Origin: a virus
Lineage: Duplodnaviria > Heunggongvirae > Uroviricota > Caudoviricetes
DNA length: 21,603 bases
Virus record (IMG/VR): IMGVR_UViG_2778261535_000006
Span: 1-21,603 of that record
Reading direction: 5' to 3' (one strand)
Shown: positions 5,711 to 16,306 of the stretch, one piece after another
Layout of the letters: each line of letters begins with the position of its first letter
Position numbering within the stretch: position 1 is the stretch's first letter
Program-made: the position numbers and the translations under genes
Notes under the pieces: generated by a model
What the model was told of the DNA's origin: nothing
The model's input: only the letters and a program-made list of their open reading frames with translations
Database searches by the model: none

Positions 5711-7416
5711 TTTCTGGGTGGCCTGCGGTCTTCTTTCTCGTACAGCATGGCTCTGCCAACCGCCATAATCAGCGCAACTGCACCATCGATTTTGTTTTCC
5801 GCCTGCTCTTTGACGGGCTTCACCACATCATCGTTACCCGGAATGGTTTTGCCGACCACGTTGCCGATACACCAGGTCATGATGGGATTGCCATCATGAT
5901 GAAAGCGCCCCGATTCAATTGCCGCTTCCAGCTCTTTCATCGGGTCGGACATGTTGGTGTAGTTCTGAATGATAGTGATGGGGTTCAGGTCTTCATCAGC
6001 AAGGTCATGTGACAACCCGGTCGCCCCGAAGGGGTCGATGGGTGACTCACTGACCGGGCTGATTTTGTTCGCCGCTTTGGCCTCCTCGAGGATGTAGCGA
6101 TAATCCACCTCCGCACCATCGGTAACGGTCAGAACGCCCATTTCCACCCATTTCTGAAAGCGTTCGGCTGTCCGTCGATCTTCATTTTTCTCGACGCTGT
6201 ACACCGTGTCATACGGTACCCAGAAACGCGGGGCCACACTGTAGTAATGCGTTTTACCGTCAATCTCGCGGGTATAAAGTCGCGCCATGCTGTTCATATC
6301 CAGCTTACGCGCCAGGTCAAAGGCCAGAATGCACGGCTGCCCCTCGAACTGCTCAAGGGTCAGTGATTTATCCTCGCAGCTCTGCCAGCTCACCAGGTTG
6401 AAATACGCCGAACGCGCCGACACCCAGATATTGAGGTGTTTTGTTTTAAAGACGTTTGCCAGACGGGCGTTATTTTTCGCACGCTGCTGCTGACTTAACA
6501 AAAATTCGCGATAAACCGACACGCCAATATTCGGGTTAGCTTTTTCCAGCACCTGCGGGTCGGTCCAGTCATCGCCTTCGTCAACGGTATAGATGATCCC
6601 GAACAGTTCATCGTTGGGTACCGACCCGTTGAGCATCTCGATAACTTCCCGTCGCTTGTCGTAGCACGGCCCCTCAATGTTGTACCCGGCAGTAGTAATG
6701 GCCCACATCAGTGGCTGACGTCGCGCCCCCATCCCGGTAAGCATCGTGGTGTAAAGCGCATCGGTGGCGTGCTCGTGATATTCATCCACCACCGCACAGT
6801 GGGGTGATGAACCATCACCGGGGTTACCGATCAGCGGTTCAAACCGCGCGCCATCCTCCGGACGATTCATGTTTGAGGCGTTAACCTCAATCCCGAACGC
6901 TTCCGTCAGCATGGGTGTGCGTTTACACATCAGTCTTGCCGGACGAAAGACTTCCCATGCCTGTTTCTCCGTCGTGGCACCGGAATACACTTCCGCGCCG
7001 AACTCGTTATCACAGGCAAAACAATACAGGGCGACACCGGCAGAGATTGCTGATTTGCCGTTCTTACGGGGGATTTCGGTATACACCTCCCGGAAGCGGC
7101 GCAGCCGGGAGCCTTTATTGACCCAGCCAAACGCGCAGCAGATCACAAAGAGCTGCCACGGCTCCAGCGTGATGGGCATCCTCTTGAATGCCCACTCACC
7201 CTTGGTGTGCGGCAACAGCTGAATAAATTTGGCGGCCCGTTCAGCCAGGTCCTTGTCGAAGCGGTAACGAAACGACTTACTTTTTTCCGCCATCAGGTCA
7301 TCAAGATGGCGCTGGCAGGCCTGAATCACAAACTGGCAGGCCACAATCTTTCCGCGCACAACATCACGGGCATACTGATTGGCAGCATTTACGTTGGGGT
7401 AAGATTTCCGGCTCAT
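5500..7416 (-). CDS. Terminase large subunit; 3' end is abnormal and reads out of frame ~70 codons into the capsid remnant
   Basis: 638-aa ORF, ATGA overlap with the small terminase stop. Terminase-like through ...[22 protein letters not shown], then low-complexity Pro/Arg/Trp-rich text ([19 protein letters not shown]...) that is capsid DNA in the wrong frame. Confidence 0.8.
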
Positions 7417-7907
7417 GATTCGATAATTTTCAGAAACGGGTTAGTGGCTTTCTTCTGCCCCGCCAGGCCAATCAGACGCTGGCGGCTGCTGGGGTCGAGT
7501 CCGAGCATTGCCCCCGTACTGCTCATCTCGGACTCCTGTTCTTTTTTGGCGGTCAGCTCCGGATTTTTGACCATGCCGCCCATTGCACCGGTGATGGTGT
7601 TGCCCTGTCTGGCAATATTTTTCACAGCACGTCGCCAGAACTCATAGGCTACGCACCACCGCTCAAGCACTGCGAGGTCAGTCACGCACAGCAGGCCCTG
7701 ACCGCAGAGTTCTTTGGTTGTCAGTTGCCACATGATCGTGGCGAGAGGGAGCTCTTCTTCAGCGAACCACTCCGGTGGCTCAACACCTTTGATGGGCGTA
7801 AAAACGGGTTCATCTTTGTTCAGGGCTCGCTTGCCGGGGTTTCCGGCCAGCGCCTTGCGCGCCGTTGGCTTGGGGCGACGCCCGGAACGCCCCGCCGTTC
7901 CAGCCAT
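7413..7907 (-). CDS. Terminase small subunit (P27-like family)
   Basis: Start taken at ATG 7907 ([18 protein letters not shown]...) with AGGAG 9 nt upstream; stop overlaps the large terminase start; downstream of HNH. Confidence 0.65.
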
Positions 7908-12185: not shown

Positions 12186-12348
12186 GATTCCTCCTTGCTG
12201 CCAGTCGCAACCATTTTTTATCAACCAGGCTGGCGGTATATCCGAGCAGTGTTGGTATTTCGGATGGCTTCAGCTCAGGTTTACGCTTACGACGATTTGG
12301 TACTCTGTAGATGTGTCCGTTCATGACACGAATAAGCGGTGTAGCCAT
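12178..12348 (-). CDS. ninE: NinE-family protein (56 aa); absent from the ORF track
   Basis: Minus-strand frame ATG 12348 to stop at 12180..12178: [56 protein letters not shown]. Basic, with the W-L-R-L motif of NinE proteins; GGAGG RBS; overlaps the ybcO-like start. Confidence 0.7.
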   Translation of the reverse strand: MATPLIRVMNGHIYRVPNRRKRKPELKPSEIPTLLGYTASLVDKKWLRLAARRNHG

Positions 12349-12803
12349 TACGCCTCCTGCTTGTCGCGCAGCAGCTGGAACTCGCAGCTCTGCGGAATAG
12401 TCAGGTGGCAGCCAATATTCATCGCCCAGGCTTCAACCTTACACAGGAAGACATACATCTCTCCGGTATCAAGATTGGAGGTATGGCGTAACGACTGGAT
12501 AGTAGTAATTTCGCCGGTTACGACATCAACCAGGTCCTTGGTTTCATAACCGAGGTATGTGTGTTTGAGAGCATCTTTAACCCATGCTGCAGTAGCGAAC
12601 GATTTCCCCCTGCTTATGAGGTATTCACTGATTTCGCTGTACCACATGTGGCTAAGTGCATTCTGGGAAAGACTGCGTCTCTCGCGCCACGGTTTAAGCA
12701 CCATGCGAAAGCATTTGCCGTCCTCCAGATAAGGCTGGATCTGCTGACCGATAGCGGTGAAGTTACCGCGATGCAATTTGATACCGTCTTGTGGGAGGTT
12801 CAC
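12348..12803 (-). CDS. ninB: NinB (Orf-family recombination mediator)
   Basis: GTG start with GGAGGTGAAG RBS; [15 protein letters not shown] parallels the lambda NinB RNRSLDQNRKLWA region; nin-region synteny. Confidence 0.75.
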
Positions 12804-12986
12804 GCTTCACCTCCGCAGAGGTCAAACGCAAGATGCAAAGAATCACAGGTGCATTTTTGCATCTGTGAGGGGAGAAGAGAGTTTAGATTGTATGTGCGCA
12901 TAAACGTCCCCGTTTAGCGCAGAAGTCACCGGAGTTGTTCAGGCTCCGATGACATGATTATGGCGAGTTGATTATGGAAAATCAAA

Positions 12987-13190
12987 TTAGTACAAATCAC
13001 CACTGAAGCGTAAATTTTCCAGTTTGTTACGGTGAAAATTGATTTGCTGTGCGATAAAACTTAATCTTTCATGCCCGCTTTCTCCTTGCGAAATCTCAGT
13101 CTCTCTCCGTACTAGATCATCTAGTTGACGCTCATGATCTTCAATTTTTTTTCCTTCCCAATACTTCACGTAAGATTCAAAATCATCCAT
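12987..13190 (-). CDS. Hypothetical small acidic protein (67 aa)
   Basis: ATG 13190 preceded by a strong SD (AGAGGGGGTGA); not lambda-like; lies in a non-lambda insert between ren and ninB. Confidence 0.5.
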   Translation of the reverse strand: MDDFESYVKYWEGKKIEDHERQLDDLVRRETEISQGESGHERLSFIAQQINFHRNKLENLRFSGDLY

Positions 13191-13348
13191 TACTTCACCC
13201 CCTCTTATTTTTAGATATTTTCAAACCCAACAAACCACCTGCAGTGCGTTTGTCAGGCGAGTAAGTGGGGCAGCTTTAAAGTACTAGAATGTTTCATAAA
13301 GACATCCGACTTAACAATGTTCATGGCGCTACTAACTCTCGCACCAGT

Positions 13349-13657
13349 TTAGTAGGTAGTACAACTCATTCCGCCATTTATCGTGGGATTACAATTAGTT
13401 GTAATCGGTCTGTTAGCCGCATCGATAGCTGCCTGCTGAGCTTGCTGCTGTTGAATGGTCTGATTTGCTTGATTAAGGCCAACCTGCATTGCCCCCATAT
13501 CGCGAGCTGCATAGCAAGCGTCACGATCGCCATCATCACACATTGCAGAGACCTGACCGACAGTCTTGAATGCATAACGGCTATGCCACATCGAGCGGGT
13601 GTCACTTGTGCAGCCAGCCAATACTGAAACTGCCACGATCATCATTAAAATTTTCAT
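13349..13657 (-). CDS. Lipoprotein of unknown function (signal peptide + lipobox LAGC; Cys- and Gln-rich)
   Basis: MKILMMIVAVSVLAGCTSD...; flanked by AT-rich non-coding DNA on both sides; occupies the ren-nin junction. Confidence 0.6.
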   Translation of the reverse strand: MKILMMIVAVSVLAGCTSDTRSMWHSRYAFKTVGQVSAMCDDGDRDACYAARDMGAMQVGLNQANQTIQQQQAQQAAIDAANRPITTNCNPTINGGMSCTTY

Positions 13658-13762
13658 TATTGAATACTCTTTATTTTGTAAAAGATACTACTGATTAAAA
13701 TACGCTCAACCCAGATATGGAATTATGATGCTGCTCATCATCTTTGCATATTGAGATTTCCA

Positions 13763-14056
13763 TCACAGTAAATTTTTTCCCCAAACCATCAACACCCGTT
13801 TCATCGCGGCACTCTGGCGACACTCCTTAAAAATCAGGTTAGTGCTCACCTTTCCTTCCCGTTCTTCCCTGGTAGCGAACCTGTAATACACCGTTCGCCA
13901 GACCTTACCATCAATGACCAAGATTCCTGCCCGCGCCATTTTAGCCGCAGCCTGATTTATGCTGGTTACTGTTGCGCCTGTTACCGCAGCAACGTCGTGC
14001 GCACAGAAGCTCTTATGCGTCCCCAGGTAATAAATAATTGCCTCTTTGCCCGTCAT
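13763..14056 (-). CDS. ren: Ren
   Basis: MTGKEAIIYYLGTHKSFCAHDVAAVTGATVTSINQAAAKMARAG...WRTVYYRFATREEREGK is near-identical to lambda Ren as I recall it. Confidence 0.9.
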   Translation of the reverse strand: MTGKEAIIYYLGTHKSFCAHDVAAVTGATVTSINQAAAKMARAGILVIDGKVWRTVYYRFATREEREGKVSTNLIFKECRQSAAMKRVLMVWGKNLL

Positions 14057-14754
14057 ACACTTGCCCCTTTCAGTCCGAACTTAGCTTTGATTTCTGCGAT
14101 CTTCGCCAAAGCCTGTGCACGATTTAGAGGTCTACCGCCCATGACAGGAAGTTGTTTTACTGGTTCAGGTATCGACTCACCACGGTTAATTCGCGCGGTC
14201 ATACAGGCCAGTTCATCGGCAGCCTTGCGCCGTAATTCCGCATCAGTAAGCGCATTGGCCCGCATGTTCTGGTACAGATTGGTAACCAGCCAGTAGTGCG
14301 CGTTTGATTTCCACGGATAAGACTCTGCATCCGGATACAGTCCACGCTTCCGGCAATACTCATAAACCATATCAACAAGCTCGCTGGCGTTTGGCAGCCC
14401 GGCGATAATGGATGCTTCTTCCCGGCACCAGGCGACAAACTGCCCGGGTGATGGCAGGAATGGTCGATTCTGCCGACGGGCTACGCGCATTCCAGCGTTA
14501 ACCTGTTCCATCGTGGTGATCCCATTTTCCCGGAAAGCCAGAACCCACTGGCGGCGGATTTCGTTCAGTTCATTCTGGTCCCGGTTAGCCAGGCTCGCCG
14601 GGAAAGTTGCCAGTAACTGGCTGAACACACCATTGATAATCTGCGCTACCTGCTGTACCTGCGGCTTTTCGTCGTACTGTTCCGGCATGTTATTGGCGAT
14701 CCGGCGCATCTGCTCACGGTCAAAATTAACCATCTGTGCGGCGATGTTTTTCAT
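14053..14754 (-). CDS. P: Replication protein P (DnaB helicase loader)
   Basis: MKNIAAQMVNFDREQMRRIANNMPEQYDEKPQVQQVAQIINGVFSQL... is essentially lambda P over its full 233 aa. Confidence 0.95.
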   Translation of the reverse strand: MKNIAAQMVNFDREQMRRIANNMPEQYDEKPQVQQVAQIINGVFSQLLATFPASLANRDQNELNEIRRQWVLAFRENGITTMEQVNAGMRVARRQNRPFLPSPGQFVAWCREEASIIAGLPNASELVDMVYEYCRKRGLYPDAESYPWKSNAHYWLVTNLYQNMRANALTDAELRRKAADELACMTARINRGESIPEPVKQLPVMGGRPLNRAQALAKIAEIKAKFGLKGASV

Positions 14755-15680
14755 AGCTCCACCCCGTAAATCCAGTCAGTGTTCGTCAGGTCGAGTTTTG
14801 GTTTTCCGGCTGTCACGCCAGCCTGTTGCTTGTTACGGTTGATTTCGAGCTGGGTCCACTTGTCGCGTAGTTTGGCCGGACTCAGCACGTTACCGGACCA
14901 GAAGTTGTCCTGGCAGGCCCAGCGGAACAGCACGCACATGTCGCGGTGGTTACGTCCGTCACGTTCACGCATCAGGCGGATATCGTTAGCCCACCCTGCA
15001 AAATTCGGTTTTCTGGCTGAAGGCGCGATGGTCTTCACCATGTCAAACATCCACTCTGCGGCGGTCAGGTCTTCTGCTGTCCCCCACTTGCTGCCGCTCT
15101 GAATCGCAGCATCCGGTTTCACCACAGGAAGAGCATTTTCTGGCTGGTCAGAGGATTCGTCAGAATTCTCGGACGAAAAAGGTTTTATATTGTCTTTTGT
15201 TAGTTTGTCTTTTGTATTTACCTGATTCGGGTAAGTGCGTTTACCTGATTTGGGTAAACTTTTTTTACCTGATTCAGGTAAATTTACCTCTTTCAGGTAA
15301 ACTTTATTTTTCTTACCTGATTCGGGTAATGTTGACCATTCACTGACCACATTATTAATGCCGATATTCCGCCCGCTCTGAATAAAAATCCCACGCTTTA
15401 CCAGAACACTTTTTGCAGCAGAACACTTGTGCGGCAATATCCCGGTCAACTCGGAAAGTTGCTCGTTGCTCACCCAATCCAGTTTTTTATTAAAGCCATA
15501 TGTTTTGCGCATGACAGCCAGGAAGACCAGAAGCTGGTGCTGTGTTAATCCGGCCAGCATTACAGCTTCCAGCAACTCATTTGCAATGCGCGTATAACCA
15601 TCATCGAGATCTGCCACGCGCGGCTCCTTTTGTGCCGCATCCGGCACTGGAAAATTGAATATCTCAGCAGTGTTTGCCAT
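14751..15680 (-). CDS. O: Replication initiator O
   Basis: Start taken at ATG 15680 (MANTAEIFNF...RVADLDDGY...) with GGGAGG RBS, not the track start at 15770. N-terminal region and C-terminal ...DWIYGVEL match lambda O; iterons lie inside the gene. Confidence 0.85.
   Translation of the reverse strand: MANTAEIFNFPVPDAAQKEPRVADLDDGYTRIANELLEAVMLAGLTQHQLLVFLAVMRKTYGFNKKLDWVSNEQLSELTGILPHKCSAAKSVLVKRGIFIQSGRNIGINNVVSEWSTLPESGKKNKVYLKEVNLPESGKKSLPKSGKRTYPNQVNTKDKLTKDNIKPFSSENSDESSDQPENALPVVKPDAAIQSGSKWGTAEDLTAAEWMFDMVKTIAPSARKPNFAGWANDIRLMRERDGRNHRDMCVLFRWACQDNFWSGNVLSPAKLRDKWTQLEINRNKQQAGVTAGKPKLDLTNTDWIYGVEL
15218..15329. repeat. Origin iterons (ori-lambda-like) inside O
   Basis: Five ~17-bp repeats TTACCTGATTCGGGTAA (15218), TTACCTGATTTGGGTAA (15241), TTACCTGATTCAGGTAA (15265), TTACCTCTTTCAGGTAA (15284), TTACCTGATTCGGGTAA (15313), each with TTACC/GGTAA symmetry, next to an AT-rich tract at 15181..15217. 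Confidence 0.75.
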
Positions 15681-15766
15681 AATTCCTCCCGCAATGAGTG
15701 TGTTACGATTTGCACCTGAAAGTCGGTTCTGTTCCCGCAGACCGACTTTCGCCATTTTTGAACCTG

Positions 15767-16306
15767 TCATATTGCCCCCAGCATGGTGGTGACCATCGCC
15801 ATCAATGGACCAGCCAGATCCGGGTCCACTCGAAACATCGACACAATGCCTTCACTCATCTCCTTCAGTTTCTGGTGGCGTGGTGCGTTGAGAATGACCG
15901 CCTGCTTTGCCTCACTGAGTTCCTTTTCCATTTCAGCCAGCCGAGCCATGAAGCTATCCTGCTCAACCAGGTGGCCGCGATATTCCAGCGGTAGTACCGC
16001 CAGAATTGCCGGGGTCAGTTCACGCACGTTATTTCGGTATTTTTCAGAATCGAATTTGTTATCGAGGAAGCGGAACAGCTTCTGGCGTGCACGACTGACA
16101 TCATCAGGAAAATCGATGGTGCCGCCGCCCTGTGCTCGATACTCATTCACAATGAGTGCGGCAACTACATCCTGATTATCTTCAGCAGACCAGGCGCGGA
16201 CGGCATCACGAATTTTTTCGTGGCCTGGCACCTGTTTTATTTGAGAACGATTTATCACCGCAGTCGGGCTAAATCCGCTAGTCTGTTGGTATGTAAGTGG
16301 TTGCAT
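15767..16306 (-). CDS. YdaT-like protein in the cII position
   Basis: Lies between the cro-like gene and O. Motifs EYRAQGGG and LTPAILAVLPLEYRGHL resemble what I recall of Rac prophage YdaT; unverified. Start taken at the second ATG (16306). Confidence 0.45.
   Translation of the reverse strand: MQPLTYQQTSGFSPTAVINRSQIKQVPGHEKIRDAVRAWSAEDNQDVVAALIVNEYRAQGGGTIDFPDDVSRARQKLFRFLDNKFDSEKYRNNVRELTPAILAVLPLEYRGHLVEQDSFMARLAEMEKELSEAKQAVILNAPRHQKLKEMSEGIVSMFRVDPDLAGPLMAMVTTMLGAI

Follow-up and report, generated by a model that had tools for sequence, protein, structure and literature searches.

Gene content of the locus

The 21,603-nucleotide stretch analyzed here (positions 1 to 21,603 of IMG/VR virus record IMGVR_UViG_2778261535_000006; hereafter, the window means this whole stretch) is a DLP12/phage-82-type lambdoid prophage whose early-right operon is encoded by the minus strand. 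In this operon, two small minus-strand genes lie between ren and the nin genes, one for a 102-amino-acid (aa) lipoprotein (13349..13657) and the other for a 67-aa acidic ORFan (12987..13190), referred to below as orf67. These two island genes are real but uncharacterized cargo. An earlier note made from the sequence alone had described them as an accessory-gene island in which each gene brings its own expression signals. Our analysis corrects the impression of two self-contained expression cassettes and adds a rare allele to a known hotspot; the most interesting feature of the locus is a very rare and very strongly constrained lipoprotein family.

The genes of the operon follow the order O (14751-15770), P (14053-14754), ren (13763..14056; 97 aa, Ren-like by PHROG 142, E 1.4e-40), the 102-aa open reading frame (ORF), the 67-aa ORF, orf33, and a ybcN/orf151-type gene (12348..12803), with ninE, ybcO, rusA, ylcG, and Q lying 3' of the latter. 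A spacer of 105 nt (13658..13762; guanine-cytosine [GC] content, 30.5%) separates ren from the lipoprotein gene, and one of 158 nt (13191..13348; 42.4% GC) separates the lipoprotein gene from orf67. On the nin side, orf67 borders the conserved leader of the orf33/ybcN module (12902..12986), which lies outside the insert as delimited below, and orf33 itself (12800..12901), a ylcH homologue, overlaps the start of ybcN by 4 nt. All these features are on the minus strand. A near-identical E. coli prophage in RefSeq has the identical gene order, and both island genes are annotated there as "hypothetical protein."

The gene bordering the island on the nin side had been labeled ninB. Its product does belong to the NinB/Orf family, but it is of the YbcN/orf151 type found in DLP12 and phage 82: it matches NCBIfam PRK09741 (E 4.6e-83) and PHROG 72 (E 1.3e-51), scores 22.5 bits against Pfam NinB, under the gathering cut-off of 23.8, and bears the RefSeq name "DNA base-flipping protein YbcN."

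Boundaries and distribution of the insert

The gap between ren and the NinB-family gene measures 959 bp in the window and 73 bp (ren-ninB) in lambda, so the basic observation that about 950 bp is inserted here was correct. However, the last 183 bp of the gap (12804-12986) is not part of the insert. A megablast search against 50,697 phage records matched the edges alone, extending to 13790 on the ren side and to 12986 on the ybcN side, where phage 82 was among the matches. The segment between these edges was absent from all 50,697 records, both in a blastn search and in tblastn searches with each of the two proteins. Among 5426 complete E. coli genomes, positions 12804-12986 were found in 2822 and the island in 24. 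Because the phage matches stop at both edges and the segment between them is rare, the true insert is ~12987-13789 (803 bp). The two ORFs had been recognized in the earlier note, whereas orf33/ylcH and the conserved leader in the remaining part of the gap had been overlooked.

The right edge of the insert falls inside the 3' end of ren, a gene that is variable from ~13790, and homology to diverged lipoprotein modules (L023/L024, described below) begins at ~13827-13834 in local blastn comparisons. Both boundaries look like ordinary mosaic recombination joints. A search for direct or inverted repeats flanking the insert, which would have hinted at transposition, was negative. One 14-nt near-repeat (12978-12991 / 13830-13843) fails to line up with both boundaries, and we regard it as due to chance. 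Rfam returned no RNA family over 12600-14000.

The interval between ren and the nin leader is an already known hypervariable cargo slot. In DLP12 of K-12, emrE-ylcJ-ybcK-ybcL-ybcM lies between ren and ylcH, another strain carries an alpha/beta hydrolase gene in the ren-nin slot, and different small ORFs are found there in phages Turner and PhiR5_1. The locus in the window is therefore a rare allele of a known cargo hotspot and holds ordinary accessory cargo. Like that of DLP12, this cargo sits between ren and the conserved leader/orf33(ylcH)/ybcN segment, consists of accessory genes that do not belong to replication, and is oriented like the early-right operon. Unlike that of DLP12, which spans ~4 kb and encodes, among others, a transporter, a recombinase, and a regulator, it comprises 0.8 kb with a lipoprotein gene and an ORFan; the genes are wholly different, and the cargo is far rarer, being found in 24 genomes compared with the thousands that have the junction.

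Base composition is also in line with accessory status, with 41.2% GC for the insert and 37.3% for orf67 as against 49.3% for the window, and the spacers had rightly been called AT-rich by the same comparison. Homology to a conserved core nin-region protein was looked for as well. Neither island protein matched a core nin-region family in Pfam, PHROG, or NCBIfam, whereas the flanking genes matched NinB/YbcN, NinE, YbcO, and Ren. The description of both as accessory genes accordingly stands, given their occurrence in 24 of 5426 genomes, the variable slot, the lower GC content, and their absence from the phage records.

The lipoprotein family

The description of the 13349-13657 ORF as a 102-aa lipoprotein with a Cys-rich mature region was borne out in every detail. 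Its N-terminus (MKILMMIVAVSVLAG followed by C) comprises a signal peptide (residues 1-15) and the lipobox LAGC, with Cys16 encoded at 13610-13612, and the mature protein of 87 aa holds four further cysteines as well as the Gln-rich tract QQQQAQQAA (residues 69-77; 13427-13453). From these features, the assignment as a lipoprotein appears sound. In E. coli, lipoproteins with a residue other than Asp at position +2, such as Thr, are sorted to the outer membrane by the Lol system. Since the +2 residue here is Thr, the lipoprotein is predicted to be sorted to the outer membrane.

Relatives of this protein are very few. A search of 5.8 billion protein clusters yielded 10, and an exhaustive hidden Markov model search of 1.84 billion representatives found 4, of which the new ones were P0013, P0015, and a dubious repeat protein, P0014. 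In total, the family amounts to about a dozen clusters among 15 billion proteins, most of them phage-borne. The GTDB species genomes contained no relative, and the IMG/VR and JGI metagenomes supplied a handful more, which proved the most informative finds. Members share a layout of lipobox, C-x7-C, Gln-rich linker, and C-x9-C near a C-terminus that ends in Tyr, Phe, or Met. The cysteine pairs, which are C40/C48 (CDDGDRDAC) and C89/C99 in the window protein, are invariant, and the lipobox is kept in 11 of 11 aligned members as well as in P0013, P0015, and a paralogue on contig L008, which Pfam LPAM_1 also matches.

A short form of the protein lacks the TSDTRSMWHSRYAFK segment. It is represented by the L008 paralogue, which is encoded on a virulent-looking phage contig where two tandem paralogues (7001-7596) pair a long form with a 90-aa form devoid of this N-terminal segment, and by P0015, which is solitary in L032-L034. 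P0014 (262 aa), a weak profile match, consists of ~5 tandem repeats, each with C-G-S-G-Y-R-D-R-D-A-C-V-A-A; the repeat echoes the C-x7-C of the family, and P0014 could be either a bona fide repeat protein or the translation of a repeat in the DNA.

The homology and structure searches that the earlier note had proposed were run, and they returned no known family and no fold match for either island protein. More specifically, Pfam, PHROG, NCBIfam, and PADLOC held no family for the lipoprotein or for orf67, and family scans of the lipoprotein relatives gave only matches driven by the signal peptide. PDB sequence searches gave nothing significant, the best hit being the PulS pilotin at chance level (E 3.1). 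A low-confidence AlphaFold model of the lipoprotein from an 11-sequence alignment (predicted local distance difference test score [pLDDT], 63) comprises a helix, the C-x7-C segment, a long helix, and a beta-hairpin, and Foldseek matched it to no PDB entry. A literature search on the two RefSeq accessions retrieved no papers.

Three diverged copies of the gene (L023, L024, and L036) made it possible to assess selection. They share ~86% DNA identity with the window over the common segment (gene plus flanks) and 98% protein identity. A Nei-Gojobori comparison with L023 counted 18 synonymous and 2 non-synonymous changes (dS 0.34, dN 0.008, omega 0.025). Both replacements fall within the signal peptide, so that the mature part has 16 synonymous changes and 0 non-synonymous ones. 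Under neutrality, the binomial probability of at most 2 replacements among 20 changes is ~1e-10. In addition, the spacers are far more diverged than the gene, and only a segment adjacent to the ribosome-binding site (RBS) and a short stem immediately beyond the ren stop codon are kept. This substitution pattern indicates a genuine coding gene under very strong purifying selection.

Carriers and genomic contexts

In each of the three diverged copies, the lipoprotein gene directly follows a ren-like gene, and three or four small, unrelated ORFs take the place of orf67. L023 has a gp18-like O with a DnaB-type helicase, whereas L024/L036 have another O/P pair and a true NinB downstream. Thus, at least three lambdoid backbones with differing replication modules have the lipoprotein gene immediately 3' of ren, and only one of them has orf67 as well. 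So far, orf67 has been seen exclusively in the module of the window, and all 10 contexts examined read O-P-ren / lipoprotein (intact or interrupted by the insertion sequence IS3) / orf67 / ybcN, with orf33 called in most of them and with varying Q and lysis modules downstream. Because other lambdoid backbones have the lipoprotein gene after ren without orf67, the two genes can be separated. We rejected a functional link between them, as the lipoprotein occurs without orf67 in L023, L024, L036, and all distant relatives.

Further afield, the settings are diverse. In L005 and L008, virulent-looking phages with no lysogeny genes in view, the lipoprotein gene sits in a compact cluster of early genes that precedes those for HNH, terminase, and an SU10-type portal. 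The relative in L007 lies between the gene for an SLT-domain virion protein and an integrase gene, those in L003 and L030 adjoin resolvase genes, and that in L041 has a chromosomal-looking context. Collectively, these contexts show the lipoprotein gene to be mobile and accessory, with phages as its main carriers, and orf67 to be a neighbor unrelated to it.

Carriers also differ in their virions. The one in AP019856, closely related to the window prophage, has lambda-type gpJ/Lom/Stf tail genes, with its own bor, and with lom further downstream, and the one in OY754371 has a contractile sheath, a tube, and a baseplate J/gp47 protein. The latter prophage (L044; OY754371 5090000-5114000) combines a lambda-type O-P-ren early region with a contractile tail and a terminal gtrABC O-antigen glucosylation cassette. 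From this combination, it follows that the early module circulates among morphologically different prophages.

Several copies are variants in decay: L002/L010 (AP045064), L029 (CP024147), and L028 (CP182139) show either IS3 in the lipoprotein gene or IS1-mediated deletions. The deletions removed kil to ren while the lipoprotein gene and orf67 were kept, and orf67 is cut in one strain. In L045 (NZ_AP023208.1, pMTY18781-3), the O-P-ren / lipoprotein / orf67 / ybcN region is on a circular "plasmid" record of 70,209 bp, which may represent a phage-plasmid or else a prophage that has been excised or is replicating. In L041, another small lipoprotein ORF (TGCDAGAKSLNWYKAHDAERKAKYKEC; 888-1199, -) stands beside the family member at 1430-1747, surrounded by genes for an Ada-like methyltransferase and a PEP-mutase-like enzyme; this ORF may resemble EexN-type entry-exclusion lipoproteins.

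Expression signals

Consensus-grade promoters and terminators were sought over 12300-14200, with counts compared against shuffled controls, and a relaxed scan accepted 8 of 12 hexamer matches. The consensus scan gave 2 promoter-like sites, against 3.4 +/- 1.9 expected from the shuffles. The sole one on the coding strand (12985..12957) is 3' of both island genes, and no terminator-like site was detected on that strand. The relaxed scan reached 8 of 12 at best 5' of the lipoprotein gene and found nothing at that level 5' of orf67. In the diverged copies (L023/L024), the weak -35/-10 hexamers before the lipoprotein gene are not retained, and the spacer has diverged except for the stretch AATAA(A/T)GAG(T/A)ATTCAATAATG adjacent to the RBS. 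The RBS itself is weak (AAAGAG, 9 nt 5' of the ATG). Neither this spacer nor the one between the lipoprotein gene and orf67 folds better than shuffles. After the lipoprotein gene, an imperfect hairpin (13225-13258) followed by UUUGAAAAU (UUUG) is the only terminator-like feature; it is weak and non-consensus.

The claim that each gene has its own expression signals therefore holds for the RBSs and fails for promoters and terminators, the counts of which do not exceed those of the shuffles. What the sequence supports is RBSs for both genes rather than autonomous cassettes. Given that no promoter or terminator was found beyond chance, read-through from pR is likelier than autonomous moron expression. 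Both genes would then be transcribed as part of the delayed-early O-P-ren transcript, and both products would be made mainly during lytic growth or induction.

A rival explanation, along the lines of the earlier note, sees the two genes as autonomous morons, each with its own promoter and terminator and expressed in the repressed prophage, and the lipoprotein as a surface-exposed host-fitness or virulence factor akin to Bor and Lom. As in the moron concept of Juhala and Hendrix, the island is present in some related phages and absent from others and deviates in GC content, the spacers are AT-rich, and weak promoter-like matches and the hairpin with UUUG flank the lipoprotein gene. Moreover, the genes in L007, L031, and L041 are isolated, and that of L007, between tail genes and integrase, occupies a classic conversion-gene position. 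Nevertheless, the sigma-70 promoter and factor-independent terminator of that concept are missing: neither gene is preceded by a consensus-grade promoter, the coding strand has no terminator, and the hexamers before the lipoprotein gene are unconserved. The gene is also packed into an operon in L005 and L008, whose phages show no lysogeny genes. With respect to Bor, the lambda serum-resistance protein, the likeness is that of a small, accessory prophage lipoprotein with deviating base composition and patchy distribution. However, the window protein has no PF06291 match, its gene has no promoter-terminator pair and belongs to the early-right operon rather than to the late region on the opposite strand, and the AP019856 carrier already has its own bor. 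As Lom homology is lacking too and this same carrier has a separate lom, the bor/lom paradigm serves as an analogy only. We consider the autonomous-moron explanation unlikely.

Possible functions of the lipoprotein

Small phage lipoproteins are among the few well-understood routes by which the outer membrane is rewired, examples being Llp on FhuA and Rtp45 on LptD (described as acting on LptDE; PMC12685063). Llp is expressed early, and both Llp and Cor contain an intramolecular disulfide (PMC9586334). Llp and Rtp45 are precedents for early-expressed, periplasm-facing, disulfide-bearing phage lipoproteins (PMC9586334, PMC12685063). Those phage exclusion lipoproteins whose structures have been solved are oriented toward the periplasm (PMC9586334, PMC12685063), and neither this nor the predicted Lol sorting from +2 Thr gives support to the surface exposure that had been proposed for the window protein. 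An exclusion or host-fitness function is possible.

On balance, we lean toward the view that the slot was filled by ~800 bp carrying two independent accessory genes, which are read through from pR, and that the lipoprotein acts in protection or exclusion at the level of the envelope. In this scheme, two disulfides made by DsbA, C40-C48 and C89-C99, would stabilize the lipoprotein, which would be anchored in the outer membrane facing the periplasm and bind a host envelope component from the periplasmic side. The weakest step is the last one, namely a putative function in envelope-level exclusion or protection that is directed at a target unconnected with the receptor of the phage itself. With low confidence, we suggest that the protein acts on some part of the host envelope independent of that receptor and brings about heterotypic exclusion or envelope protection.

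Several points weigh against this scheme. The 8-of-12 promoter-like matches 5' of the lipoprotein gene, weak as they are, leave room for expression in the prophage, and the genes in L007, L031, and L041 stand alone between long spacers, by an integrase or in a context that does not look like phage, as morons would. No homology links the lipoprotein to any target, its structural model is poor, and the fold search came back empty. Known exclusion lipoproteins are encoded beside the receptor-binding protein gene, whereas the window lipoprotein is not. As for orf67, it has no diverged homologue, and the case for its coding status comes only from the length of the ORF, its strand, and its strong Shine-Dalgarno sequence.

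The lipoprotein could instead be an exclusion protein of the Cor/Llp/Rtp45 type that blocks the receptor used by the phage's own tail. It resembles Cor (HK022, phi80, N15, T1), Llp (T5), and Rtp45 in being a small phage lipoprotein with a lipobox and conserved cysteines. The cysteines come in two invariant pairs, and disulfides between them would recall the one in Llp and Cor (PMC9586334). The predicted outer-membrane sorting is likewise in keeping with such a role, as are the position in the early-right operon, with its presumed delayed-early timing (Llp is also early; PMC9586334), and the extreme conservation of the mature sequence, which would suit a precise protein-protein interface. Against this, the mature protein is longer than those of Cor and Llp (87 versus ~60 aa), has a Gln-rich linker and two Cys pairs, and is unrelated to them in sequence past the signal peptide: in hhalign comparisons with HK022 Cor and T5 Llp, only 16-18 signal-peptide columns align, and a match of P0015 to PHROG 1119 (Cor; E 9e-5) vanishes once the signal peptide is removed. 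Furthermore, the gene follows ren and does not adjoin a receptor-binding protein gene, and its carriers have unrelated adsorption machines, a siphovirus tail with lambda gpJ in one case and a contractile tail with a baseplate in the other. Since the tails differ, the gene is not co-inherited with one receptor specificity, which argues against a blocker of the Cor/Llp style and makes this explanation quite improbable.

A more far-reaching form of the envelope-level scheme, which we regard as improbable but worth stating, is that the family represents a new class of phage envelope effector, i.e., a periplasm-facing outer-membrane lipoprotein that docks on a host outer-membrane machine or porin other than the phage's own receptor. 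Its architecture would consist of two disulfide-stapled modules joined by a Gln-rich spacer, a helical hairpin with C-x7-C and a C-terminal beta-hairpin with C-x9-C and a final aromatic residue. If this were true, the protein would confer heterotypic exclusion or envelope protection during lytic growth. It would also be clear why the mature part is perfectly conserved across a dS of ~0.37 and why the gene is present in phages as different as lambdoid, contractile-tailed, and virulent-looking ones. The family has no sequence kinship to Llp or Rtp45, is strongly constrained, and moves between very different phages, and the lipoprotein is a cheap, well-defined, and easily tested candidate for screening against phage panels and for binding partners. 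Finally, a role as o-spanin or in lysis was discarded, because the lysis cassette lies far away from the gene and already includes Rz/Rz1.

The 67-aa ORF

The ORF at 12987-13190 conforms to its initial description as a 67-aa, highly charged protein with an unusually strong Shine-Dalgarno sequence. It has an isoelectric point of 5.1 and a net charge of -5, and the Shine-Dalgarno sequence GAGGGGGTGA (13195-13204), four bases 5' of the ATG, allows an eight-position pairing with the anti-Shine-Dalgarno. Searches for relatives returned near-identical copies and no other homologue, and no family, PDB, or phage match. A single-sequence AlphaFold prediction gives a two-helix alpha-hairpin (pLDDT 80), for which Foldseek found nothing at E <= 0.001 in PDB or BFVD; an alpha-hairpin being too generic, these fold searches are uninformative.

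Could orf67 not be a gene at all, and 12987-13190 be non-coding filler or a remnant with a frame open by chance? Besides the restriction of its homologues to near-identical copies and the lack of a family match, there is a frameshifted 50-aa variant (P0012). The copies differ at 3 sites (2 synonymous, 1 non-synonymous), so selection is not measurable, and substitution patterns cannot judge coding with so few variable sites. On the other hand, the Shine-Dalgarno sequence is near-perfect and optimally spaced, the ORF is on the operon strand and is the sole long one in 360 bp of DNA with 37-42% GC, the predicted helical hairpin is confident, and the frame is intact in every intact (non-IS-deleted) carrier copy that we fetched. 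We therefore consider a non-coding origin very unlikely and orf67 likely to be coding. Most likely, its product would form a small alpha-hairpin in the cytoplasm and bind some protein of the host or the phage.

The conserved leader and orf33

The promoter-like site 3' of both island genes (TTGATT-17-CATAAT, 12985..12957) belongs to the conserved leader, together with a conserved 10-bp hairpin (12925-12953) with a folding z of -2.6 relative to shuffles. The phage 82 record annotates this stretch with a "putative -35/-10," a "possible regulator-binding site," and orf33, and the first two of these correspond to the promoter-like site and the hairpin. In orf33/ylcH, variation is chiefly non-synonymous, and orf33 is frameshifted in L023/L024; the DNA may therefore be conserved for regulation and not for the peptide. 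The conservation of 12800-12986 may reflect a regulatory or terminator (tR2-like) role. A second hairpin, long and imperfect, lies within orf33 (12831-12864).

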